From a virus (lineage: Duplodnaviria > Caudoviricetes): DNA of 64,000 nt. The translations under genes and the position numbers were made by a program. The notes beneath the pieces are model-generated. The model made no database searches and was not told where the DNA came from. It saw only the letters and a list, made by a program, of their open reading frames with translations. The stretch covers positions 89,203 to 153,202 of IMG/VR virus record IMGVR_UViG_3300021426_000002; one strand, given 5' to 3'. Positions within the stretch are counted from its first letter, which is position 1. The number at the start of each line of letters is the position of its first letter. Positions 2,616-50,780 of this stretch are shown here, piece by piece.

Positions 2616-3949
2616 CTGGATTGCACAAGCACAGTAATGCAGACAGATTACAATGTGCCACAGTTTTTGGCAACAACGTAATTGTCGATCTGTCTTATTA
2701 TGAAGGTCAGCGAGTAATTTATTTTCCGGTTGACGGTCAGTTAAGTGAAGAGTTTGCAAACGACAATAATCTTATTAAGAAGTATGTCCCTGTTTCCGAA
2801 CTTAGCGCAGAACAGATTGTCAACAAAAACATTATAACCAAAGACGGAGTTGAAGTAGTTAATGTCGGCGGTTATATGGAAGAAGGGAAAAGAAATATTA
2901 CAGCGTTAAAGCTGCGTGGTGAAAAATCCGAAGGACTTGTTTTACCGATTGAAGTTCTCAGCAAGTATACAGATGTGAGCAAGTTGAAAGACGGAGATCA
3001 AATTACTGTCCTTGATGGTCATGAAATTTGCAAGAAATATATTCCGAGAACAAATCATAGAAGAAACGGCGAGAATGGCGGTAAGTACAAGAAAAACCAC
3101 AAGGAAGAGAAAGAAACTATTTCTTATCCGTTCTTTATTGAACATATTGATACACAACAGTTGGCTTTTAATCAAGGTGCTTTTAAGCCTGGTGATACTT
3201 GCTACATTACCTTAAAGATGCATGGCACAAGCGCAAGAACGGCGAATACTGTTAGAGTTATCAATAAGCGTCCTAATTTCATTCAGCGCATTTTACATAT
3301 AAAACCAAAACAGAAAAAGGATTATACACTTGTCAGCGGTACACGCAGAACCACGCTTAGAAATTATGATGGTGGTTTTTACGGTAGTAATGAATTCAGA
3401 CAGCCATATCATGAATTTTTCGCAAGCAGACTTCCTAAAGGCGTTGAAGTCTATTACGAGATTGTAGGTTATCAAGATGGCAAGCGTCCGATTATGGGTA
3501 GCTGTTCCAATGACAAAGTTCAAGATAAGAACTTCAAGAAGATGTACGGCGATACAACAGTGTTCTCTTACGGCTGCAATGAAGGTGAGAGCGCTGCTTA
3601 TGTTTATCGCATGACAATGATGAACGAAGATGGCTTCATGGTTGAACTTCCGTGGGAGCAAGTACAGATCGAAGCTGAAAAGATGGGTGCTAAGTGTGTT
3701 CCTACATTTGAGAAATTCATCTTTACAACTTGGGATGATCTCATGGAACGTGTTGAAAAATACTATGACGGTGCTGATCCAATCGGTAAAACTCATGTTC
3801 GTGAAGGCGTTGTTGTGAGAATTGATAACCGCCAGAAGTTCACAGCATATAAGCACAAGAATTTCTCATTCAAAGTTTTGTCCGGAATTATCGCTGATTC
3901 AGTTAGCGAAGATTCTGAAATTGATTCTGACATTTTAAGTGAAATGTAA
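2588..3949 (+). CDS. RNA ligase (OB/tRNA-binding N-domain + Rnl-type nucleotidyltransferase; DRB0094-like)
   Basis: N-terminal HSNADRL and KLRGEKSEG OB-fold motifs; ligase motif I KMHGTS, plus YYEIVG, REGVVVR and KHKN. Confidence 0.8.
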   Translation: MYCAYITSLTGLHKHSNADRLQCATVFGNNVIVDLSYYEGQRVIYFPVDGQLSEEFANDNNLIKKYVPVSELSAEQIVNKNIITKDGVEVVNVGGYMEEGKRNITALKLRGEKSEGLVLPIEVLSKYTDVSKLKDGDQITVLDGHEICKKYIPRTNHRRNGENGGKYKKNHKEEKETISYPFFIEHIDTQQLAFNQGAFKPGDTCYITLKMHGTSARTANTVRVINKRPNFIQRILHIKPKQKKDYTLVSGTRRTTLRNYDGGFYGSNEFRQPYHEFFASRLPKGVEVYYEIVGYQDGKRPIMGSCSNDKVQDKNFKKMYGDTTVFSYGCNEGESAAYVYRMTMMNEDGFMVELPWEQVQIEAEKMGAKCVPTFEKFIFTTWDDLMERVEKYYDGADPIGKTHVREGVVVRIDNRQKFTAYKHKNFSFKVLSGIIADSVSEDSEIDSDILSEM

Positions 3950-3959
3950 GGAGTTACAT

Positions 3960-4904
3960 ATGTCAAGTAAAGCTACGTTAATTATGCTTATTGGTTTACC
4001 CGCAAGCGGTAAATCAACGTGGTCTGAGAGGTATATCAGAGATAAGCCGGAAACTGCTCTGCATTCTTCTGATGCAATTCGTGAAGAATTATTTGGAGAT
4101 ATAGAAGACCAGACAAATAATGCAAAAGTTTTTGAGGAATTAAATAAGCGGGTGTTTGCAGATTTACGGCAAGGAAAGACAGTTATTTATGACGCAACAA
4201 ATCTTAGCAAGCGCCGGAGAATAGCTTTCATCAGACAGCTAAACAATATTAACCCGAAAAAGATTGCTGTGTTATTTGCAACTCCATACGAGCAATGTTT
4301 AGCAAGGAATAATAACAGAGAGCGTGTTGTGCCGGAATACGCAATGAAGAAAATGTATTTCAGTTTTGAACCACCGCATTTCAGTGAAGGTTGGGATGAA
4401 ATTGAAATGATTGAGGATGTAGAAGAAGAGTTTGACACATTGTTTGATATTTCATTGCTGTTTACTGGTAAGAATGGTATTGACGGATTCGATCAGAAAA
4501 ATAAACATCATTCAGCGACACTTGGTAAGCATTGCAGACTTGCAGAAGAATATATAAAGAAACATAAACAAGATGATTCAATCCTTGCGATGGCGGGATT
4601 GCTACACGATTTAGGCAAGGTAAAAACTCAGAGCAAGTATAATTCAAAGGGCGTGTTTGACGGTAATTATCACTACTATCAACATCATTGCGTTGGTGCT
4701 TATGATTCGCTGTTTTACGCTGCTGAGTTATATGACAGCCTTGACGATATTTTGCGTTTGTCAAATTTAATTTTCTACCACATGCATCCGTATCTTTCAT
4801 GGAAACAATCTGAAAGAGCAAAAGAGAAAGACAAGCGCATTATAGGCAGTGAAATGTTTGACGATATTTTACTGCTCCATGATGCAGACGTAGCTGCACA
4901 CTAA
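3960..4904 (+). CDS. polynucleotide kinase (AAA_33) fused to HD phosphoesterase
   Basis: P-loop GLPASGKST, DATN and RNNNRER kinase motifs; C-terminal H...LLHDLGK...H...HM...D HD domain; RBS AAGGAG. Confidence 0.8.
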   Translation: MSSKATLIMLIGLPASGKSTWSERYIRDKPETALHSSDAIREELFGDIEDQTNNAKVFEELNKRVFADLRQGKTVIYDATNLSKRRRIAFIRQLNNINPKKIAVLFATPYEQCLARNNNRERVVPEYAMKKMYFSFEPPHFSEGWDEIEMIEDVEEEFDTLFDISLLFTGKNGIDGFDQKNKHHSATLGKHCRLAEEYIKKHKQDDSILAMAGLLHDLGKVKTQSKYNSKGVFDGNYHYYQHHCVGAYDSLFYAAELYDSLDDILRLSNLIFYHMHPYLSWKQSERAKEKDKRIIGSEMFDDILLLHDADVAAH

Positions 4905-11345: not shown

Positions 11346-12539
11346 ATGAGTACGCTGTATTTTCCGTATCACATGCACACAATGCTGAGTAGTGGTACTA
11401 CCAATATTGATAGTATCACTCACTATCAGCAGTATGTTGATGCAGCCAAAGCATGTGGAATGGCTGGCTTATGTATTTCAGAACATGGTAATACATTTGC
11501 GTGGGTAAAGAAAAAAGAAGCGATTGAAAAAGCCGGAATGAAATATGTTCACGGTGTTGAAGCGTACATAACGGAGGATAATAACCAAAGCGAAAAGAAA
11601 CATCGTGACAATTACCATTGTGTTCTTATGGCGAGAAATTACGCTGGTGTAAAAGAAATTAATAAACTTGTGTCAAGATCATACACAAGAACAGATAACC
11701 ACTTTTACTACATGCCACGTATTTTCATGGATGAACTTTTTGCAACGTCAGAGAATATTATTGTTACGTCCGCCTGTTTGGGCGGTGTTCTGAATAATGG
11801 AACTGATGAAGCAAGAGAGCGAATGCTTTGTTTCATGGCACAGAATAAAGAGCGGTGTTATCTTGAAATTCAGCATCATGATATTGCAGAACAGATAGAA
11901 TATAACAAGTATTTATACAACGTCAGTAAAGCCACAGGAATTCCGCTGATTGTTGCTACTGATACTCACGCTTTAGACAAATCACAGATGGAAGGTCGAG
12001 CCGTTTTACAGAAAGCGAAAGACGTTCGGTTTGCAAATGAAGACAAAATGGATTTAACTTTCAAGACACCAGAAGAATTGGATGAATGCTGGCGAAAGCA
12101 AGGTTCATTACCTATGTCTGTTGTCGAAGAAGCTAAAGCCAATAGTATGAAACTACTTGATTCTATCGAGGAATTTGAATTAGATCATTCTGCGAAATAT
12201 CCAAAGTTATACGACAATTCGGAGGAAGTCTTTAAGCAGAAAATCAATGCTGGTTATGTTTGGCGCAAAATCGGTCAGAAGCCAAACAAGCAAGAGTACA
12301 TTGATAAGATTCATTACGAATATGAAACGTATAAGCACAACAACGCTATTGATTTCATGCTGCTTGAAGAAGACTATAAATCTGAAATGCGAAGGCGTGG
12401 AGTCCGGTTTGGATATAGCCGTGGTTCAGTAAGTGGCAGTATTATAGCTTACCTTTTAGGAATTACAGAAATAGATAGTATTAAATACAATTTGAACTTT
12501 GAGCGCTTCATGTCAAAGGAGCGGGTCAGTCTAGCAGAT
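11346..12539 (+). CDS. dnaE: DNA polymerase III alpha subunit, exon 1
   Basis: PHP domain (HMHT, SEHG, TDTH), SRGSVSGS, FERF...ERVSLAD; ends in U at the predicted 5' splice site. Confidence 0.9.
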
Positions 12540-39886: not shown

Positions 39887-42800
39887 TTACCATTTAATAT
39901 TTCGTTTTGCAAGAGCAGAACCGCCAACCAAACGATCAACTGTAATGCTCTGAATGAACTTCTCAAACTTCTTATCGGCCTTAATCTGATTAACAAGATC
40001 ATTATAATCTTCAACATGCTCAATCGGGATATTGACAGAAATACCGCCAACATCCACACCGGCACGACCAGACACAGTAGACAAGCCACCGAGAAGAGAA
40101 GCGGAGTCAAGGAGTCTGCCTGTCAATCCGAGTTTTGCTAAGAACGCTTGCGGATTATTGCCAAAGCTGAAAATATTATCCGTAGCCTTTGCACTAAGAA
40201 CAGCATCGCCACTATTCAGCTTAGTCAACATCGCATTTTGTGTAGGACTGAGAATTGCTTCACTGCCGTATTCCTGTGTCCATGCGAAACCATCAGTAGC
40301 ACGCCTTACGCCACGTGCATACGCTTTGACATACTGTTTAGAAACCCAACCCCAATAGTCTTCCTTGCTATTGTGTACTCTGATATGCAGCCAGCCGTTA
40401 GATTCTTTCCAGTCTGTTTCAACTATATTTCCCTTTGCAAGCTGTCGAATAACCGTTCCGCTTGCGTTCGGCGCATTGCGCACATTAAGTCTGTCAGAAC
40501 CATTCGTGAAGATAGGAGTAACAATGCCGTTTCCGGTTTTTGTATTCCCGCTCTTCTTGCTAGTTTTGCTCTTTGAAGTAGACTTCTTCGGCTTTGTCAC
40601 ACTAGTTGATTTCGTTGTAGAATTAACCGTTGACTTTGCTTCTTTTTCGCTTTGACCAATCATACTAGCCACTCTAGCATCAATCTGCGAAAGCACATAA
40701 TTGACTGTAGTAAGCTGAGAATTAAATGTATCGCCGTACTGTGTGATAATGCTTGTCGCATCAGACATGCTCTTATCCCAAGTAGCGCTCATTTCGTCTG
40801 TCAAAGTATAGCCAACATCATTAGCTGCACTATGTAGAGTATCACTTATCGCAACGGCATTATTATTGATTGTGCCTATCATTTCAGTGATAGAATAATC
40901 AACTTCGTCCATGCGCTGATTGATATTTTCCTCATACTCTGAATACATGTCATTAAGCATCTTTTTCTGATCTTTAACATATTTATCGTATTCAGTTTCG
41001 GCTAAATCTGCTTGCGCTTCTTCCAAATCAGCTTGTAACTTTTGGATTCTTGCACGATTCTCTTCTGATGTATCACCGCCATAAGCTGATAACTGCTTTT
41101 GGATTTTAGCTATTGTCTCTGTCTGTTTTCTTACCTTTTTCTGGTAATCATACAAATCTTTCGTCCTGTCAAGAGTGTCCGTATATTCATCAATTACTTT
41201 CTTCATAGAACTTAATTGAGCATCGTAACCGTCTTTGACTAAATCCATAATCGCATCTTTTTCGTCTTCGGCAGCAAGAATCATCTTGCGCTGTAATTCA
41301 TACATCTTTTCACGCCGTTCGATCAGATTTGTGTTATATGGATCAGAACTAAGTTCCTTATTGAGTTTCCGTATTTGTTCAGCGTAATCATCGGCTTGTG
41401 ACATGTAGACATTGTACCGCTGACCGTGAAGACCCATTGTAGCTAATCCGGCATCAGTTAATAAACCGTCTTCGTCTTTAAGTTCTCTATGACTTAACAA
41501 AGAAATCATGAATTCAGCTTCGTCATTGATTGTTCCAATGCGATCTTCCAGATAATCGAAATTATCCCATTTAAGTTCCTTGATTTGTTGTGCTAATTTT
41601 GCAAGTTCAATATTAGACTCTTGAAGTTCTTCCTTCGTCTTATTGATTTCTTCATTGAATTCATACCATTGCTGTGAACCTTGCTCAATATAACCGGAAT
41701 TCATTGCCTGGTTATATCTTGTTATGAGCGAGTTAAGTTCTTTTTGCAGTATGGAATTATGCTGACGCTCTGCACTTTCCATCGCTTTGTAGTATGTTGA
41801 ACCAACTAAACGCCCTCTTGCTTCAAGAAGATCAACGCCATTCTTATACGTTTCTGTTAAGTGGTCAATTAACTTAATCTGATGGTCATAATTCTTTTGC
41901 GCATTCTCAAAAGCAGTAGTATAAAGTTCAGCCATTTTCTCTTTAAGTTCATCTACTGCGTCTTTTGCACTAAGCGCCTTTTCATAGAAATCTTTAAACT
42001 TGCTAATCTTATCGTTTAAGTCATTGTCTGTAATGTGTTCAATGAGTGAAGCATTTCCGCTCTTAACTTTGCTCTGCCAAGAAGCATCAAGACCAACCGC
42101 ATTGGCTTGTCCTAAATACGCTTGATATGCTTTTTGCTGTGCAGTAATTTGATCTTTGACTTTCGAAATTTCCTTCGTTAAGTTTTGACTTCTATTACTC
42201 CAAGTCTTGTAAACATTATCAACGGCTTTTTCAAGTTTCTTTATACCACGCTCTAAGCGGTCAATGAATATTTCAACCCAATCAAGGACTTTATCAGAAT
42301 CACTTCCGGACGCAAATGCAGTACCACTAGCGAATGCATTACCACTAGCATAAGCGTGTCCACGTGAATTGATATGACCGTTTTTGAGAATTTGTTCTGT
42401 CTGTACATGATTGAAAACAATTGCTCCGGCGGGGATGTTGACGAATTCTGCGCCGTTTTCTCCGACCGTATACCAACGTCCAGATTTCGGGTCAACTATC
42501 ATTTCCTTCGCCAGCTCACCTACCAAAGCAGTACCGCCTTGATTAGTTCCCCATTTACCGCTTGCAAATGCGTTACCCATGAATTTGCCAGGGCCACTAG
42601 CATTTACCCAATTAACAGTTCCGGTTGCCGTAAAGCTAGTTTGTACACCGCTTGTATCATTACCCCATACAACGACACCGTTTGCGGTTTTCGTTGAAGC
42701 TGCATAACTGTCTACTTGACCAGTGCTATTAGACCATGTAACAACGCCTGTGCCTTGTTTCTCTTCGCCAGCGTAACTGTCAACTTCGCCGTGTTCTGCC

Positions 42801-45800
42801 GTGAATTTAACAATCGCTTCTGCGTTCAGAGAATTAAGTTCAGCCGTGATAGCAGCACCAGCACCGCCTTCAAGTTTTGCGCCAACCTCAACTTGTGAAC
42901 CAGACGCAAGAGACTGAATCTGAGAAGATAAGTCTGAACCTTCTTCAAGTCCGACCTGTGCTTTGATTTCCGGATCAAGTCCTTCAATCTCGCTTGCCAA
43001 ACTTTGAATGTTTGCTTCTGCTTCGCTTGTATCAATGCCAGCCATCTTAGCAGCTTCATACTCATTGAGTGCAGTTTGTAATTCTTGCAATTTGCTTATG
43101 GCATTACTTACACCTTCGTCAAAACCGGAAGTGTCAACGTCAATGCTCATAATACCGCTTGACTGTTCAAGTTCCTGTTTCTTCGCTAAAAGATCAGTAA
43201 CTTTTTGCTGTGCTTCTTCCGCACCCTCGGCATTGATATTGATAGAGCCATCTTCATTTCTGAATTGCTCTAATTGTTGCTGTGCGGTTTCAAGTTCGGA
43301 ATTAACTTGTGATAATGTAGCAGTAGAAGAAGCCCATGTATTATTGACAGTATATCCGGCTTCTTCGGCAGCACGAATCATAGTTTCCACTAACGAAACG
43401 TCAACACCTAAAGCCTGTGCGTATTCATCTGCTTTTGAAGCATCAAGAATATTTCCTTCACCAACTTGACCTAATTCACTAAGCGCACTAACGAAATTCT
43501 TAATACCGCCAGTCGTTTCATCAACTTTAGCATTTCCTTCTTCGTCCATAGTCATAAAGAAGTCTTTAACGCTGTATGAAGTTCCTTCAATGGTTTGACC
43601 AAGTTCTTCATATCTGTTCTTAACTTCTTCGGCTGAGAATGACGCTTGCTCTCCATAAGTCATTAAGTCAATATAGGCTTGTACTGAATCATCGTTAATC
43701 CAGCCTTGTTCAATTAAACTGCCTGTAGCTTCATAACCACTACCAGCGTTTTGATACATGTCACGCTCGTTAGCGCTAGACTGAGCAGCAACCCACTCAT
43801 TGTAAGCAGACGTTAAAGCATTGTACTGAGAAATAAGTTGTTCTGTTTGTGCGATTTGACCGCTGAACAGGTCAACCTTTGCCTGTGCGTCTGCGTAACC
43901 CTCGTCAGTCTCTTTGAGTTTGGTAAGTTCCGCATTTGCTTTGGCAAGATTCTCACTTTGTTCTCTTAACTGTTCATTCAGTTCTGCCTTTTTAAGATTT
44001 ACATATTGTTTCTGTAATTCTTTTAAAGCTGCGCTATTCGCACGAACGCCGTTTGCCGTATTGTAGAAAATCTTCGATTCATCGAATCCGTCTAAACTTC
44101 CAAATGTTTCACGAATATTAGTTAGCATCTCATTGGAAACGCCAGTATTCCCACGTGATTCAGAAAGCGCATTTCGCAATGTATCAATTTTTGCAGCTTC
44201 GCCCTCAATATTAAATTCAATTTCGATTGTCTCGCCCTGTAATGATTCAATCGCTCCTTGCCAATCCTCAATAGACCAATCAGAAGTATCATTCGTTTTC
44301 ATGATTCTGTAATATATCTTTAATTCTTCATCGCTTGCAGTTGCAAACAAATCATCGAGATATTTCTTAACTTCTTTATTCTTTACAGAATCCTTCATGT
44401 CGTTTAACTGCTTTGTTACTTCTTTCATATTGGTGCTGCCTGTCATGGCATTAATGGTCTGTGCAAGATCATCTATGTCAATTCCTGCATCTTGCGCAGC
44501 TTGCGCCATTTCGGAGAAATTTTCTTTAATGTCTTTTCCAGTAATTCCAGCTTCACCTTGCGCTTTCGCAAATTCAACCATATCATCTGCCATCTTTTTG
44601 TAGTTGGTATCTGACAAAAGATCATTGATTTTTGATTGCTTATAAGCTGCCTTTTCTGAATCCGTCATTAAGTCATAGGTAAGTTTATCAATTCTTTCTA
44701 CGTCTTTAGCATAACCTTCAATAGCTTCACCAGTAGAAGCATCTACAAGACCTTCTCTTAAATCATAGATATCTGATAAGTTATTTGAAATCTGTTTATT
44801 AAGATCGTTTTCGTCTCGCTTTGCTTGATCTATTTGCTTGCCAATTTTCTCATACTCTTTTGAACCATAATCATACTTGCTTTGTTCTTCTGTAAGTTCA
44901 GCAATCTTCTCTTGTTTTGCAATCATCTTATCTTGCAAATTAAGAGTTTCATCTATAATGTCAACACTCTCAGTCGTATATACAGGTTTCTCTTTTGTAC
45001 CTGTATTATTCGTAACCATACGTGTATTTTCATTAAGCGCTAAACTTGCATCAGACGCAGCTTGTGATTGCTGTGTATTAGCAACTTTTTGTTTCAACGC
45101 TGCTTGCTTTTTGAGTTGTTCATTAGTTGCAGTAAGCATATTTAACTGTGCTTCTTCAACCAGAGTAAGAGTGCCTTTTGATTTTAATTCATCAATCGTA
45201 GCTGAGTTTTCTTTAATCTTTGCATTAAGTCCGTCAAGTTCTCCTTGTGTAGCTTGATACTCACTGTAAGAATTATCAGCGGACTCTTTTAAATCATCAA
45301 ATGTTTTAGTTGCGTTTGCCACGGCAGCCATAGCAATACCAGTAGCAGCAACAACCATCATCGCCCAACCAACAGGATTGGTTGTTAAGAATGCAATCAT
45401 ACCAGTAGCAGCTTGTTTCAATGCGCCAGCCAAACCAAGTGTTGCTCCGGTTGCGCCAGTAGCAGACGCAGCAAATTCTGTATTGGCTACAACCGCTGCT
45501 GTCATTTGTGCAGAATAGCCAGCACTAACCATAGCTTCTTCCGCTTGTGCTGCTGTAAATCCGGCAACAGCCATCATCTTAGCTGCTTCGCTTGTGGTAA
45601 GACCATTTGCAATAGCAATCTGCGCTGTCTGTGCTGCACTATATCCAATCATTGCCGTTGTTGCGCCAATAGTCTCAGCACTCATTCCGGCAAGGGCAGC
45701 TTTAACCGCATTATAATGGGCACTTATTGACGGAGCACTACCAAATAATTGTGAAAAAGCAGTAGCAACTTTACCCATATTTTGTAAATTGCCAAGATTT

Positions 45801-46516
45801 TTCATGAATGCAAATATACCACCGGCAGCACCTAACGTTCCAAACAAACCTAATTTATCGGTCAATGCATCAACTACACTAAGCAATGCTGTAAGTCCGT
45901 CAACAACCATGCCAATATCTTTTCTTGCAAAAAGATTTTGTGCAATACCTGTTCCGGTTTCTTTCAGCGCATTAAGTTTGTATGAAATTGATTGAGTGAT
46001 AACACCCATTTCCTTTTCAGCATTACCCGCCGAATTCTGCATCTTCTCCAATGCAGCTTCAACAGTGGCAAAGTTTTTGATAAGAGCAGAACCAGCCTGT
46101 GCGCCACGCTTACCAAACAAATCATTCAAAAGCGCTGTCTGATTTTTGGCGCTCATTTCATCCCATACTTCGGAAAGTTCACGGAAGTAATCAACGAAAT
46201 CTTTGTATTGAGTTTGTGTAGCGTCTGTGAAGATTGATACACCTTGCGCATGTTCAGCCGTTTTTGTTAAGTCAATAATATCACCATTGATATTTACAAG
46301 GTCTTCACTGACTTCTTCTGTCTCTTCATCAAAGCCACGCATACGGAGTGACATACTTCTAAGCGCTGTACCTGTACTTGCGGGGTCTTGCAAAACTTCT
46401 TCTGCTGCTGTGAAAAGGGCGATAGTAGAATCAAGGTCTTGCCCCATCGCTGACATAGCAGCCGATGAACGTTTAAGACCTTCCAAAATGTCTGTGTTAC
46501 TAACGGCAAAATTATT
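39887..46516 (-). CDS. tape measure protein, exon 4 (with C-terminal SH3b domain)
   Basis: NNFAVS...GTALRSMSLRMRG TMP motif, long coiled coils, ALVGELAKE, and LNVRNAP...GWVS..YV SH3b. Confidence 0.9.
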   Translation of the reverse strand, partial: NNFAVSNTDILEGLKRSSAAMSAMGQDLDSTIALFTAAEEVLQDPASTGTALRSMSLRMRGFDEETEEVSEDLVNINGDIIDLTKTAEHAQGVSIFTDATQTQYKDFVDYFRELSEVWDEMSAKNQTALLNDLFGKRGAQAGSALIKNFATVEAALEKMQNSAGNAEKEMGVITQSISYKLNALKETGTGIAQNLFARKDIGMVVDGLTALLSVVDALTDKLGLFGTLGAAGGIFAFMKNLGNLQNMGKVATAFSQLFGSAPSISAHYNAVKAALAGMSAETIGATTAMIGYSAAQTAQIAIANGLTTSEAAKMMAVAGFTAAQAEEAMVSAGYSAQMTAAVVANTEFAASATGATGATLGLAGALKQAATGMIAFLTTNPVGWAMMVVAATGIAMAAVANATKTFDDLKESADNSYSEYQATQGELDGLNAKIKENSATIDELKSKGTLTLVEEAQLNMLTATNEQLKKQAALKQKVANTQQSQAASDASLALNENTRMVTNNTGTKEKPVYTTESVDIIDETLNLQDKMIAKQEKIAELTEEQSKYDYGSKEYEKIGKQIDQAKRDENDLNKQISNNLSDIYDLREGLVDASTGEAIEGYAKDVERIDKLTYDLMTDSEKAAYKQSKINDLLSDTNYKKMADDMVEFAKAQGEAGITGKDIKENFSEMAQAAQDAGIDIDDLAQTINAMTGSTNMKEVTKQLNDMKDSVKNKEVKKYLDDLFATASDEELKIYYRIMKTNDTSDWSIEDWQGAIESLQGETIEIEFNIEGEAAKIDTLRNALSESRGNTGVSNEMLTNIRETFGSLDGFDESKIFYNTANGVRANSAALKELQKQYVNLKKAELNEQLREQSENLAKANAELTKLKETDEGYADAQAKVDLFSGQIAQTEQLISQYNALTSAYNEWVAAQSSANERDMYQNAGSGYEATGSLIEQGWINDDSVQAYIDLMTYGEQASFSAEEVKNRYEELGQTIEGTSYSVKDFFMTMDEEGNAKVDETTGGIKNFVSALSELGQVGEGNILDASKADEYAQALGVDVSLVETMIRAAEEAGYTVNNTWASSTATLSQVNSELETAQQQLEQFRNEDGSININAEGAEEAQQKVTDLLAKKQELEQSSGIMSIDVDTSGFDEGVSNAISKLQELQTALNEYEAAKMAGIDTSEAEANIQSLASEIEGLDPEIKAQVGLEEGSDLSSQIQSLASGSQVEVGAKLEGGAGAAITAELNSLNAEAIVKFTAEHGEVDSYAGEEKQGTGVVTWSNSTGQVDSYAASTKTANGVVVWGNDTSGVQTSFTATGTVNWVNASGPGKFMGNAFASGKWGTNQGGTALVGELAKEMIVDPKSGRWYTVGENGAEFVNIPAGAIVFNHVQTEQILKNGHINSRGHAYASGNAFASGTAFASGSDSDKVLDWVEIFIDRLERGIKKLEKAVDNVYKTWSNRSQNLTKEISKVKDQITAQQKAYQAYLGQANAVGLDASWQSKVKSGNASLIEHITDNDLNDKISKFKDFYEKALSAKDAVDELKEKMAELYTTAFENAQKNYDHQIKLIDHLTETYKNGVDLLEARGRLVGSTYYKAMESAERQHNSILQKELNSLITRYNQAMNSGYIEQGSQQWYEFNEEINKTKEELQESNIELAKLAQQIKELKWDNFDYLEDRIGTINDEAEFMISLLSHRELKDEDGLLTDAGLATMGLHGQRYNVYMSQADDYAEQIRKLNKELSSDPYNTNLIERREKMYELQRKMILAAEDEKDAIMDLVKDGYDAQLSSMKKVIDEYTDTLDRTKDLYDYQKKVRKQTETIAKIQKQLSAYGGDTSEENRARIQKLQADLEEAQADLAETEYDKYVKDQKKMLNDMYSEYEENINQRMDEVDYSITEMIGTINNNAVAISDTLHSAANDVGYTLTDEMSATWDKSMSDATSIITQYGDTFNSQLTTVNYVLSQIDARVASMIGQSEKEAKSTVNSTTKSTSVTKPKKSTSKSKTSKKSGNTKTGNGIVTPIFTNGSDRLNVRNAPNASGTVIRQLAKGNIVETDWKESNGWLHIRVHNSKEDYWGWVSKQYVKAYARGVRRATDGFAWTQEYGSEAILSPTQNAMLTKLNSGDAVLSAKATDNIFSFGNNPQAFLAKLGLTGRLLDSASLLGGLSTVSGRAGVDVGGISVNIPIEHVEDYNDLVNQIKADKKFEKFIQSITVDRLVGGSALAKRNIKW

Positions 46517-46812
46517 CATTCTGTTGCTTTTATGACCATAACAGAGTTATGGCGATAAGGACGTTAATCCTTATTCTCACGTTTCATTGCCTATGAGTTA
46601 TAGCGTGAGTCCAGACTATATATTACATCCCTCTATAAAGAGTAGGATGGATAACTTCAATGCGTATATTACTATGCGCATCCTGTAGTCGTTAGGGATA
46701 AATTATATTTTTAAAAATATAAAGTCTTTCCTCGGTCTTGAATACTCCTATCCTTTAACCGATATAGTTATCTGCTTGACCATGCATTACTGTATGATCT
46801 CGGCAATATTTT
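46517..46812 (-). mobile_element. group I intron 3 of the tape measure gene (296 nt, no ORF)
   Basis: P1 TCGGT|AAAATATT-GCCGA with a U.G pair; AACGACTA / TATAGTCT P7; ends in G. Splicing gives KINIVG|NNFAVS. Confidence 0.85.
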
Positions 46813-46873
46813 ACCGACAATATTAATTTTTGATGCAACTCCGTCTAAAGCGTCATCCGCTTCAATGTTAAAT
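46813..46873 (-). CDS. tape measure protein, exon 3 (61 nt)
   Basis: Encodes (A)FNIEADDALDGVASKINIVG, in frame with both neighbouring exons. Confidence 0.85.
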
Positions 46874-47337
46874 CATTTGTATTAATTGTGACCGCAAATC
46901 ACAATAAACATATTATATGTTTCTTATTCTTTCGAATAAGGCTAGACTATTTCTTATTCCTAATATTTAGGATCACACCTTTTCGATTTAATGGATTTTC
47001 ACCAACGCCGTTTACGATTGCGCCCTACTCCTAATATTGTGAATATTCGGGATTTCCACCCTTATTCATAAATCCACAACCCTATATGGGGGATAGTCGT
47101 TGAACCTTTTCCCTCGGCTAACACTGTTTGTTCAACAGAATACGTTAGGGAACTTGGCTGCATGAACTACGATTATTAAAGCACTTAGGCTTTTAGCCAT
47201 ATGCCATCCTTGCGTTGTTTCTACTTTCGTACCTTCATATAGTGCTTTCGCCTATATTGTGGTGCAAGGCTTTACGTTTTACCTGCAATTAAATGTGTTC
47301 TAGTTGCACATTGCTATACAACAAGGCATTTATGTTT
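46874..47337 (-). mobile_element. group I intron 2 of the tape measure gene (464 nt, no ORF)
   Basis: P1 AAGGC|AAACATAAAT-GCCTT; TTGCAGG...CATGCAG; TTCAACGACTA / AAATAGTCT P7; ends in G. Splicing gives IMKA|FNIE. Confidence 0.8.
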
Positions 47338-47449
47338 GCCTTCATTATTGAAACCAGACCTGTTGTTGCATCGTCTATAGTAGCGCCAGGAGAAATAGAT
47401 TTAAAAAGAGATGAAACTTGCGCCATAGTTTTTGAGTCATTCAGATTAT
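47338..47449 (-). CDS. tape measure protein, exon 2 (112 nt)
   Basis: Encodes (Y)NLNDSKTMAQVSSLFKSISPGATIDDATTGLVSIMK(A). Confidence 0.85.
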
Positions 47450-48625
47450 CCTAATTGTTACTTTTTTGTTTATACAAACAAAAAGGGTAGGTCATTTCTG
47501 CCTACCTCTGCAATTTCATTATTTAATTGGATTATATTTGCAGAGCAGATCATACCATCAACTCAGTGAGTTGGTCAGCATACGTCACATGATTACTCAT
47601 GCAACTGTGATCGTTACGGGATTTAAGTTATTATTTAATATTCTCCTTACTTCATCATTTGATAATGTATAGGGTAAACATATCAAAGTTATATTATTAT
47701 TTTCACAAAATTGTTTTTTAATATTATCATTTAGGACTAGAGTTTTGAATCGCTCTTTTCCTCCAAAATGGTCAACAGGTATATAGTGTTGTTGACCTTG
47801 ACACTCGATGCAAAATTTCTTTTCACCAAGTTCTATATAGAAATCAAAAGGAAGAGGGAAATGATTTCGGCACTCGCTAAATCTGTATTCTCTTTCGTAC
47901 TTTATATTTAATTCATCTAAGATAGATTCAACAAGTTCTTCGTATTTGCTTATTTTGTTGCAACCACATGAACGTGTTTTGCCACGTAAAAGATTTCCGG
48001 AACGGATTATCTTTCTTTTTCCGCAATCACATTCACATAGCCAACCGACACCACCGTTTGAGTATCGTTTGTCTGTTTTCTCAATTACTGTCAAATGTCC
48101 AAACGTCATGCCGGTTAAATCTTTTTCGTGGTTTTGCCGATTGTATTTTGAATCTCGTTCTAGGCAGCCACACGATTTTGTAGCACCACATATTAAATTT
48201 GCTGCTGATGCTATACTACGTTCACCGCACTCACAAATACATCTTACATGGCCTAACGGTAACATTTCAATAATTTCTAATTTACCGTATTTCTCTCCAA
48301 CCCTGTTTACTTTTGGTTTTGGATGTCTATCATTACAACCGCATGATTGTACTATATCTTTTAGCAATATTGACTTGCTATAATAACAATACTCTCCGCA
48401 ATCGCATAGACATTTGTATTTTGGTCTTCCTGTTTGTTGATAATTGTCTATCTTCTCAACAACAATTAAATCACCAAATCTTTTTCCTATTAGTTCGTCT
48501 ATATCCAAATATTACATTTTGAAAATAATAACTTAATCTTACCCTCGGTGTTGTCCATCCCTGGGTTTTCACCGATTTGAGCTGACTTTGCATTCGAAAG
48601 TTGCCTTCCGATGGGACTTTTCAAG
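47450..48625 (-). mobile_element. group I intron 1 of the tape measure gene (1176 nt, contains endonuclease ORF)
   Basis: P1 GGAT|CTTGAAAA-GTCC with a U.G pair; ATCGGTGAA...ACACCGAG; covaried P7 GATCA/TGATC; ends in G. Splicing gives WSRLG-Y-NL. Confidence 0.85.
47597..48508 (-). CDS. intron-encoded homing endonuclease (3 Cys-rich repeats + Vsr/DUF559-like nuclease domain)
   Basis: Three G..FG.L.V...C.C(D/E)CG...SCGC repeats; C-terminal LPFDFY...IECQG.QHY...D..K..FC. Confidence 0.75.
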   Translation of the reverse strand: MDIDELIGKRFGDLIVVEKIDNYQQTGRPKYKCLCDCGEYCYYSKSILLKDIVQSCGCNDRHPKPKVNRVGEKYGKLEIIEMLPLGHVRCICECGERSIASAANLICGATKSCGCLERDSKYNRQNHEKDLTGMTFGHLTVIEKTDKRYSNGGVGWLCECDCGKRKIIRSGNLLRGKTRSCGCNKISKYEELVESILDELNIKYEREYRFSECRNHFPLPFDFYIELGEKKFCIECQGQQHYIPVDHFGGKERFKTLVLNDNIKKQFCENNNITLICLPYTLSNDEVRRILNNNLNPVTITVA

Positions 48626-49694
48626 ATCCGAGCCGGGACCAGTCGGCGGTTGACTGAATAACTTCCCTTGTAGTCGTTCCATACTCTTTTGCAATGTCAT
48701 TCGCTTGATAATAGAAACTGTTCAATTCCTTTGAACTTGCCGTTGTGGTTTTCTGCAAATCGACAAGAGCATCATCAAGTTCAATGACAGAATTAACCAT
48801 TTGTTTTGTCGCTCTAATAGTTGTATATATAACAGTCGCAGCCGAAACATAACGTGACAGCTTATCGAATGATCCTTTTAATCTGTCACCAAAAGTTTGA
48901 CCAACTGCGCCAGCAGATTCAGCAGCCGTTTTAAGATTATTAATCTGCTGTGTAAGTCCCATCAATTCACCTTGCGTTACCGTATCACCGGACGCAAGTC
49001 TTGATTGAAACTCGTTTATCTTTCCTCTGATAAGATCAATATCATCACCAAAAACTCTGGTAGCTTTTGAATTCTTTTCAAGCCAAGAAGAAAAGCCATT
49101 ATCAATCTTAGACACATCAAACGATGTAGCCATGACTTTACTTTCCGCATTAACAAGATTAAGTTCGTTTCTGAATTCAGTTAAACCTAACCTAAAACGC
49201 TCATACGCTTGAATCTGGTCTTCCGGAGTTTTAGCAGTAGAAAGATTATTCTCTAATACTTGTAACTGCTGAAATTCTGTTTCTAATCGTTTTAGCGCTT
49301 CTGCGCCAGTATTACCAAACTGCTCTAGTTTAGTTCCGCTAAGATTAACGCTACCAATCTTTGTCAAGAAACCATACGTCTTCTGAAACTGCGCATTAAG
49401 TCTCTCAACAGAAGCGTCAACACTGCCGTTTGCTAATTCATTATTTATTCTATTGGTTAAACTATTCTTAGCATCACCAGAACCATTACCATTTCCAATG
49501 CCGTTGATTGGAATGTTGATCTTTACTTTGCTAAGTGCGGATTGAATTTGGGAAACAATTTTAGAAGCATCGACAGTAACGCTATCAATTTTGACGTTAC
49601 TTAGCTTAATGGGATTTTTGCCAATCTTATTTATAGAGGACTGAACTTTCGATGTATCAAGTTCAGCTATAATTTTGGCTTTAAATTCTGCCAT
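48626..49694 (-). CDS. tape measure protein, exon 1
   Basis: V.ELDDAL.DL.KTT...A.EYG.T..EVI.STADWSRLG, the start of the TP901-type TMP core; ends in U. Confidence 0.85.
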
Positions 49695-49718
49695 TGTTAC
49701 CCTCCAACTTAATCATCA

Positions 49719-50780
49719 TTACAATTCTTTTAATGATGTTTTTCGTTTGCTCTTTATACCGTCAGAACCAAACCATTCTTCAAATTGTGCATCTTTTTCT
49801 CTATCATCGTAATTGTGTACCATGTCTGATGTTTCCCATCCGATAAATAGCTGCACAACACTTTCCGGCAGATTGCTTTCAAGTAGGGTAGTAGTAATAT
49901 AATGTCTCATTGAGTGCCAGTAGAATTTCTTCCCACTGATTTTGGTAAACAGTTTGCCCCAAGAATCAAGAGTAGAAACCGGCGCTGGTTCATTCAGATA
50001 TTTGCCATTCTTAAATCTAGGGAATAACCATTGACTACGAATGCCAAGTCTTTTACGTTCTTCCATCCATAAATTCAAATACGGATTAAACGGTTTTGCC
50101 AGTGTGTAAAGCACTAACAATTTACCCATACTTCCTCTGCCCTTTGTGGTTACTTCTTCCGGAGTGCGATATACCGCACCTTCGCAAATTAGATTTTCCG
50201 GTTTAAAATACTCAACTTTATATCTGACTAATTCAGCTTTTCTTCGACCACTATTCATGGCAAGTGATAAAGCACACGCTTTTTCGTACTCGCCATCCTC
50301 AACCAACTTATCAAGAATCTTTTGTAATTCTCTGGTTTTGTATACAGTCTTCTTTCTTACTGCAACATCCGGAGGGGATTCAATCTTATTAACGATTGGT
50401 TTATATCCCTCATATTCATCATCCAAAATATTCTCAATAAAGTTCGAAAGAGAAGAGATCGTTGCTTTAACTGTTCTTAATCGTTTAGAAGACCATCCCC
50501 ATTCAGACATTGCATGAGTTTGAAAGCGTGCAATTTCTCTTTTGGTTAATTTCGGGAATGGTTTATTTTTGTTATATTCAAGATTCCAACAGAAGAATAC
50601 ATTCAGATTCGCATTGTACTGATAGATCGTTCCCTTTGATCTATCAATAGACACTAGGTAATCAAGAAAGTCTTTTTGCAATTCAAGATTTTCCGGATTA
50701 ACCTGTGCTAATTTTTCTTCTGATGTAATATAGTTATAGACAGTGCTTCGTCCGTCATTCTTTTTGCATCCTCTTTCCAA
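49719..50780 (-). CDS. tyrosine recombinase family protein embedded in the tail module
   Basis: SGRRKAEL, TKGRG, WHSMRH, IGW and HNY motifs. Confidence 0.8.
   Translation of the reverse strand: MERGCKKNDGRSTVYNYITSEEKLAQVNPENLELQKDFLDYLVSIDRSKGTIYQYNANLNVFFCWNLEYNKNKPFPKLTKREIARFQTHAMSEWGWSSKRLRTVKATISSLSNFIENILDDEYEGYKPIVNKIESPPDVAVRKKTVYKTRELQKILDKLVEDGEYEKACALSLAMNSGRRKAELVRYKVEYFKPENLICEGAVYRTPEEVTTKGRGSMGKLLVLYTLAKPFNPYLNLWMEERKRLGIRSQWLFPRFKNGKYLNEPAPVSTLDSWGKLFTKISGKKFYWHSMRHYITTTLLESNLPESVVQLFIGWETSDMVHNYDDREKDAQFEEWFGSDGIKSKRKTSLKEL

Follow-up and report, generated by a model that had tools for sequence, protein, structure and literature searches.

Is a phage tape-measure gene that gene calling reports in two pieces one gene after all and, if so, what separates the pieces? 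The question is raised by a 64,000-nucleotide (nt) stretch of viral DNA, referred to here as the window, which comprises bases 89203-153202 of the IMG/VR viral record IMGVR_UViG_3300021426_000002 and has a tail module on its minus strand. Gene calling gave two minus-strand open reading frames (ORFs), one of 357 amino acids (aa; 49694-48621) and one of 2210 aa (46519-39887), and the 2.1-kb stretch between them also contains a 303-aa ORF. An earlier note on this DNA had proposed that the two ORFs belong to a single tape-measure gene interrupted by three group I introns, which leave two internal micro-exons, and that splicing could act as a timing or stoichiometry control of tail assembly. We found that the first part of this proposal holds: the locus is predicted to be one tape-measure gene in four exons, with one contiguous PhageMin_Tail domain once these are joined. 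The second part has no support, and the introns are best read as selfish mobile elements, not as regulators.

Exon joining and colinearity with intron-less homologues

When the four exons (Table 1) were joined at the coordinates given in the earlier note, their 1069 + 112 + 61 + 6630 nt added up to 7872 nt, encoding 2623 aa and a terminal stop with no internal stop. Translation reproduced the joined reading that had been noted at the three junctions (...WSRLG-Y-NLND..., ...IMKA-FNIE... and ...KINIVG-NNFAVS...), and arithmetic on the joined exons returned the same intron phases of 1, 2 and 0. Both micro-exons would be obligatory, as had been claimed. Their lengths of 112 and 61 nt are each 1 modulo 3, and 2 modulo 3 together; therefore skipping either or both shifts the frame. 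The 5' ORF was observed to stop 5 nt into intron 1, which gives the separate 357-aa product foreseen for unspliced RNA.

Alignment to intron-less homologues had been named as a check on this reconstruction. No gap was observed at any of the three junctions in comparison with YomI, gp27 of phage TR-TP1 or MT835469; for example, WSRLG^YNLND is found opposite WSRLGYKLDD, and IMKA^FNIE opposite VMKAYNLQ (the caret marks the junction). The closest intron-less relative, locus L010, aligned over 103 residues that span all three junctions with 59% identity, 0 gaps and an E-value of 1.4e-38, and the peptide SKINIVGNNFA is identical in it across junction 3. The exon 2 peptide alone matched the colinear position of L010 (E 8.5e-5), as did the exon 3 peptide alone (E 1e-6, 65% identity), and exon 1 was colinear with YomI, L001, L003 and L010. 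Exon ligation is predicted because the restored reading frame is colinear with these homologues.

The 357-aa ORF, and with it exon 1, matched the tape-measure family PHROG 4211 with an E-value of 4e-19. In the 2210-aa ORF, the PhageMin_Tail domain (PF10145) was found at residues 2-136 and covered only profile positions 87-201. In the intron-less L010, the match to PF10145 covers profile positions 2-123, starts about 25 residues before junction 1, and maps onto the end of exon 1, exon 2 and exon 3. Since the domain of L010 starts at profile position 2, the three introns would split one domain into four pieces.

We collected 83 related loci, 80 of them from a scan of IMG/VR and three (L001, L003 and L009) from earlier searches, and about 45 of the 83 were continuous across all three sites. 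Two independent metagenome contigs, L007 and L008, encode tape-measure proteins 95-99% identical to that of the window and have all three introns in the same places, with exons of 112 and 61 nt between them. The source record is 153,202 bp long, has direct terminal repeats and was judged 100% complete. The recurrence of the three-intron layout in two further contigs, together with a complete genome, shows that it is not an assembly artefact. Where gene callers give two 'tape measure' ORFs and a stray endonuclease, the real product is predicted to be a single protein of 2623 aa. Unless the introns are removed, both protein clustering and predictions of tail length from the tape-measure protein would be wrong.

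Structure of the introns

All three introns were found to end in a terminal G (47450, 46874 and 46517), and a P1 hairpin and a P7 pair were present in each of them at the places that had been noted. We modelled in all three a conserved group I core that includes the P3/P7 pseudoknot, the P4-P6 domain and R and S elements. The hand models of introns 1 and 3 share P2 with a GNRA loop, P3, P4, a short P5, P6, P7, P7.1 with a GUAA loop, P8, three P9 hairpins and the terminal G, and both introns have a P1 with U·G exactly at the junction predicted from the protein. Their R-/S-like elements are GUAACGAUCA/GUAUGAUC in intron 1 and CUAACGACUA/AUAUAGUC in intron 3, and the P5 loop is GGAG in intron 3, unlike the GNRA loop (GGGA) of intron 1. 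Related introns end in a common 3' tail, AGUAACA-N3-5-G.

The helices of introns 1 and 3 were checked one by one on an ORF-deleted alignment. Compared with its homologue at the same site in L009, the manual model of intron 1 showed 16 double compensatory changes, 2 single changes and 1 broken pair, and intron 3 showed 8 double compensatory changes relative to its homologue at junction 3 in L018. In L090, P1 changes along with the exon, being UGAGU/GCUCA instead of UCGGU/GCCGA. A count that takes the P3/P7 pseudoknot into account was made on eight ORF-less family members, which are related sequences, include intron 3 and ORF-less intron 1, and were scored on a structure derived from one row. 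Paired cells amounted to 87%, as against 30-38% when the pairing partners were slid by 1-3 columns; 31 of 45 pairs had double changes, as against 7-12 in the slid controls, and none of 500 shuffles reached the observed values. The shared group IA-like architecture predicted for introns 1 and 3 is thus supported by covariation. In Rfam, intron 3 gave a weak match to RF00028 (15.3 bits, E 0.13 in a 331-nt search, with E-values of up to 1), in which P1, R and S were placed correctly.

Intron 2 matched RF00028 with 44 bits (E 2.5e-9) over the full-length model, and its P, Q, R and S elements could be recognised. About 50 homologues of it were found by nhmmer in related tape-measure genes, and on a 15-member family RNAalifold predicted 53 pairs, 36 of which have double changes, P7 included. 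P10 tracks the 3' exon in intron 2 relatives at other sites. The 3' core of intron 2 (46923-47033) shares 76-79% identity with the lysK introns of Staphylococcus phage K and its relatives. Intron 2 is assigned, on these comparisons, to a separate and widespread lineage related to the phage K lysK intron. In an nhmmer search of the genome, none of the three introns had a further copy.

Intron 1 and its endonuclease gene

Intron 1 is interpreted as the mobile form, with a predicted homing-endonuclease gene looped out of P6. The 303-aa ORF is enclosed by a P6a stem of 13 bp and matched PHROG 374 (4e-41), 559 and 9084 ('homing endonuclease') and 7140 ('intron encoded nuclease'), families that are annotated as HNH, homing or intron-encoded nucleases. 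A Pfam search and a sequence search of the Protein Data Bank (PDB) gave no match for it, and neither names its fold. Its TTG start is weak, and no obvious ribosome-binding site precedes it. The 3' end of the ORF (47597-47612) runs into the ribozyme: P6', P7 and the first strand of P7.1 are covered by its final codons, and the stop codon, TGA, falls within P7.1. As the end of the ORF lies inside the core, its translation and the folding of the ribozyme should interfere with each other.

In L007 and L008, intron 1 is without 880 nt (48522-47643), which are the ORF, and is otherwise 97% identical. L009 has at the same site an intron that is 79% identical to intron 1 and carries its own endonuclease, although the tape-measure protein of L009 is only about 35% identical in exon 1; both L009 and L018 have endonuclease genes of their own in the same loop. 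Scanning viral contigs for exact patterns returned only the three contigs already known to hold intron 1 homologues. Moving the junction of intron 1 by one base, which would read G-D-N for G-Y-N, was considered and rejected: homologues have Y or F at this position, and L009 has a single unambiguous omega-G. Intron 3 is an ORF-less relative of an intron that bears an endonuclease gene in another phage.

Distribution and mobility

The three introns of the tape-measure gene lie near residues 357, 394 and 414 of the predicted protein. The intron 3 site is also occupied in L018 and in L090-95, and further introns in related loci were observed, in the residue numbering of the window, near 452-455, 463-466, 472 and 536-557. 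L009 has about four introns in its tape-measure gene. Over the 83 loci, introns were found at six or more sites of the PhageMin_Tail region, their number in some genes ranging from 2 to about 4, and we conclude from this survey that in SPbeta-like and gut Firmicutes phages the region is an intron hot spot. Most introns of the related loci (L016-L095, L003 and L009) were unreported by Rfam at E<=1. Since most hot-spot introns are thus invisible to the Rfam model, the collected loci could be used to build a better one.

L001 is Thomasclavelia phage TR-TP1 (PQ571309.1, 23364-28534), for which GenBank gives two 'tail length tape measure protein' coding sequences separated by an 'HNH endonuclease'. 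The arrangement suggests a single tape-measure gene split by an intron, at another site than those of the window.

Several features of mobile introns were found here: an ORF in a peripheral loop, ORF-less and intron-less alleles, and occupation of the same site in diverged host genes. We favour selfish homing because introns are present or absent at a given site, their sites shift between relatives, and near-identical phages differ in whether they have the endonuclease gene. Nothing here departs from the accepted view that the group I introns of phages are selfish homing elements residing in conserved genes.

Two side observations were made in these contigs. L007 has a fourth group I intron (12008-12311; 79.5 bits, above the Rfam cut-off) at about residue 1740, where exon 4 of the window is uninterrupted. 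In L009, a 124-kb contig, the region a few kb upstream of the tape-measure gene contains a ROOL RNA (RF03087, 290 bits; 3824-4423) and a tRNA gene cluster.

Weighing of the explanations

It is very probable, in our view, that ordinary group I self-splicing removes three selfish introns from this gene and is required for a functional tape-measure protein. The gene would be transcribed as one pre-mRNA, in which each ribozyme would fold and form P1 between its internal guide sequence and the end of the exon before it. Guanosine-initiated transesterification in two steps would remove each intron, ending at the terminal G, and ligation of the four exons would yield the 2623-aa protein, with both micro-exons kept or the frame lost.

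Several points weigh against this explanation. Splicing itself, its autocatalysis and an efficiency sufficient for tail assembly are things that we infer from sequence. The gathering score of RF00028 is 50 bits, and all three introns are below it (44 bits for intron 2, 15.3 bits for intron 3 and no match for intron 1). A scan of the whole window at the gathering threshold gave no match, and E-value scans gave none for intron 1, even as its natural ORF-less allele. The covariance-model check named in the earlier note was thus passed only in part, with a sub-threshold full-length match for intron 2, a weak one for intron 3 and none for intron 1. A convincing P10 was not found for intron 1, and the covariation of introns 1 and 3, each taken singly, comes from essentially one diverged homologue. 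The P1 that had been noted for each intron has the canonical U·G in introns 1 and 3, but in intron 2 the 5' splice site has C47338-G47327 in its place. In model ribozymes, C-G replacing the near-invariant U·G wobble weakens the first splicing step.

We placed the junction of intron 2 at C47338 because it is the only site compatible with the frame, the conserved MKA and the terminal G, and the 5-bp P10 agrees with it. A 5' site after U47344, at which U·G is possible, was rejected: it loses the conserved MKA codons, makes the protein 2 residues shorter than all homologues and has no P10. The same C-G was observed in two MT835469 relatives, at two other tape-measure sites, with a 6-bp P10 that matches their own 3' exons, and other members of the family have U·G or U-A. 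The recurrent C-G of the intron 2 lineage is a small and testable exception to the U·G rule.

A rival reading is that the introns are real but that their splicing, above all that of intron 2, needs more than autocatalysis or is kept inefficient on purpose. The amount of full-length protein would then be limited by a factor from host or phage or by slow splicing, which is the timing or stoichiometry idea of the earlier note. The C at -1 in intron 2 would fit, its recurrence at other sites would mean that the pair is tolerated or selected, and three obligatory events with frame-shifting micro-exons would multiply any inefficiency. Exon skipping is also documented, for orf142 of phage Twort and for a polymerase gene of Bastillevirinae (PMC10136302, PMC11878797). 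However, about half of the relatives are intron-less here and endonuclease content varies, so no conserved dependence is visible, and the sites vary between relatives as opportunistic homing predicts. The family members with U·G or U-A indicate that the splice-site pair simply drifts as a base pair, and scanning the introns for internal promoter or terminator signals gave none above chance. We regard this reading as quite improbable. The timing or stoichiometry control of the earlier note is opposed by the same distribution, in which about half of the 83 loci have no intron in the region and others have introns at different sites, and by the presence or absence of the endonuclease gene between near-identical phages. 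It is very improbable that the phage makes use of the dense introns, the frame-shifting micro-exons and the C-G site, with slow or exon-skipping splicing setting the ratio of full-length to truncated N-terminal protein. If this were true, tail assembly would be coupled to RNA folding conditions late in infection.

Could the gene instead be truly fragmented, the 357-aa and 2210-aa proteins being made separately and assembling, with the micro-exons as relics and no splicing? Gene callers do report two ORFs, TR-TP1 is annotated with two tape-measure coding sequences flanking an HNH gene, and an ATG is present at 46519, just ahead of exon 4. This ATG, however, is without a Shine-Dalgarno sequence and overlaps the terminal G of the intron. 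The micro-exons have no start codon or ribosome-binding site and yet encode 57 conserved, colinear PF10145 residues, and the gaps form covarying group I cores with guide sequences that fit the exon ends; we find fragmentation hardly credible. As little credence is given to a defective phage, in which at least one insert would be a decayed, non-splicing intron and the tape-measure gene a pseudogene. Decay would agree with Rfam scores that are below threshold or absent, with the non-canonical splice-site pair in intron 2 and with the poor start of the endonuclease gene. On the other hand, the genome has terminal repeats and is complete, no exon is broken across the 7.9 kb, the arrangement with its 112- and 61-nt micro-exons is conserved in two other contigs, and the helices are maintained by compensatory change. 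Self-splicing of three selfish introns accordingly remains the explanation that we prefer.

Comparison with known systems

Selfish introns in phage tape-measure and tail genes are already known, and the gene of the window is, by its sequence features, a further example. TMP-IVS1, IVS2 and IVS3, described in 2008, are IA1/IA2 group I introns at three sites in the tape-measure genes of Bacillus cereus-group prophages (Tourasse and Kolsto, PMC2504315). At most two introns per tape-measure gene were reported, along with the adaptation of guide sequences, the occupation of one site by different introns and the loss of ORFs (PMC2504315). The introns studied here resemble them in being IA-type and inside the tape-measure gene of a Firmicutes siphophage or prophage, with several alternative sites. 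In both cases related introns have P1/P10 adapted to the different sites where they sit, one site can be occupied by different introns, forms with an endonuclease and forms without an ORF are found, and intron-less alleles can be compared. Judged by the published description, the window is set apart by three introns within about 180 nt of coding sequence, with exons of 112 and 61 nt, and it differs also in its SPbeta-like metagenomic phage lineage and in the C-G splice site of intron 2.

The tail tube gene of Twort, orf142, has three group I introns and a skippable exon of 23 nt (Landthaler and Shub 1999; PMC10136302, PMC11878797). As in the window, a single structural gene of the phage tail is interrupted by three group I introns, the internal exons are very short and the ribozymes are of IA2 type. 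The host gene differs, and splicing and exon skipping were demonstrated by experiment in Twort, whereas splicing at our locus is predicted from the sequence. Introns 2 and 3 of Twort are near-duplicates; in the window, the neighbours come from different lineages (intron 2 as against introns 1 and 3), and skipping by way of a joint ribozyme should therefore be disfavoured. Up to three introns are also found in polymerase and terminase genes of Bastillevirinae (PMC11878797). In the light of the tape-measure introns of 2008 (PMC2504315) and of the Twort tail tube gene (PMC11878797, PMC10136302), the rarity of introns in structural genes that the earlier note implied was overstated. What is notable about the present gene is the predicted presence of three introns within about 60 codons, two of which escape the Rfam model, and the C-G pair.

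Like the lysK (endolysin) intron of phage K, intron 2 is of group IA2 type, and the 3' cores of the two are similar. Unlike it, intron 2 is in a different host gene and has no ORF, where the phage K intron has the endonuclease ORF31; blastn detected no similarity between their 5' halves. Intron 1 shares with T4 td/I-TevI a group IA ribozyme in a phage protein gene, an ORF looped out of P6 and bracketed by a stem, and the existence of intron-plus and intron-minus relatives. It differs from td in that its endonuclease consists of Cys-rich repeats and a C-terminal nuclease domain (PHROGs 374/559/9084) and not of the GIY-YIG type, in that the host gene is structural, and in that the end of the ORF overlaps P7 and P7.1.

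Features of the locus and phage context

The coordinates of exons, introns and helices are collected in Table 1.

Table 1. Predicted features of the tape-measure locus, in window coordinates (^, splice site)
Feature	Position	Strand	Description
Ribosome-binding site GGAGG	49701..49705	(-)	Read from sequence; 8 nt before the tape-measure ATG at 49694
Exon 1	48626..49694	(-)	1069 nt = 356 codons + 1 nt; N-terminal coiled part and first ~25 residues of PhageMin_Tail domain
Intron 1	47450..48625	(-)	1176 nt, phase 1, group IA-like; omega-G 47450
Intron 1, P1			GGAU^..GUCC, U·G at splice site
Intron 1, helices of 5' part	P2 48611-48594; P3 48586-81/47579-74; P4 48574-70/48550-46; P5 48564-55
Intron 1, helices of 3' part	P6/P6a 48544-24/47635-18; P7 47612-08/47552-48; P7.1 47602-587; P8 47573-59; P9-P9.2 47545-47463
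Homing-endonuclease-like ORF	47597..48508	(-)	303 aa, TTG start, in P6a loop of intron 1
Exon 2 (micro-exon)	47338..47449	(-)	112 nt, peptide Y NLND...SIMK A
Intron 2	46874..47337	(-)	464 nt, phase 2, group IA2-like, no ORF; omega-G 46874
Intron 2, P1 and P10			P1 AAGGC^A..UGCCUU; P10 AUUUA/UAAAU, 5 bp
Intron 2, R and S elements	R 47105-47094; S 46955-46945
Exon 3 (micro-exon)	46813..46873	(-)	61 nt, peptide A FNIEADDALDGVASKINIVG
Intron 3	46517..46812	(-)	296 nt, phase 0, no ORF, group IA-like; omega-G 46517
Intron 3, P1 and P10			P1 UCGGU^..GCCGA, U·G at splice site; P10 4 bp
Intron 3, helices	P3 46772-67/46655-50; P4 46762-58/46736-32; P7 46690-86/46618-14; P7.1 46679-62; P8 46649-26; P9-P9.2 46609-46536
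Exon 4	39887..46516	(-)	6630 nt incl. stop; rest of PhageMin_Tail, long tape-measure body, C-terminal SH3
Predicted junction peptides of joined protein			LGYNLNDSK, AFNIEADDALDGVASK, INIVGNNFAVSNTDILEGLK

The C-terminal SH3 domain (SH3_3) was found at residues 2009-2065 of the exon 4 protein, and minor tail proteins are encoded downstream of the tape-measure gene. The nearest named relatives of the tape-measure protein are YomI of SPbeta, proteins of two Thomasclavelia phages and that of an unannotated 176-kb gut phage, and a YonO-like RNA polymerase is encoded elsewhere in the same genome. Since the YomI relatives and the YonO-like polymerase both point to SPbeta, we consider the phage to be SPbeta-like.

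Directly upstream of the tape-measure gene lies a gene for a 353-aa tyrosine-recombinase-like protein (49719-50780, minus strand; Phage_integrase, E 3e-12). An integrase-like gene inside a tail module is in an unusual location. It is kept at the tape-measure locus in L007 and L008 (99%) and in L018 (61%), and in more distant form in L009-L011.

Outside the window, two more group I introns were found on the minus strand of the same genome (G000:C1:7938-8688; L004/L005), with 89 and 45 bits against RF00028. They sit between ORFs, one of which carries PF05183 (RdRP), and this suggests that the gene at this place encodes a YonO-like single-subunit RNA polymerase and is split by the two introns.

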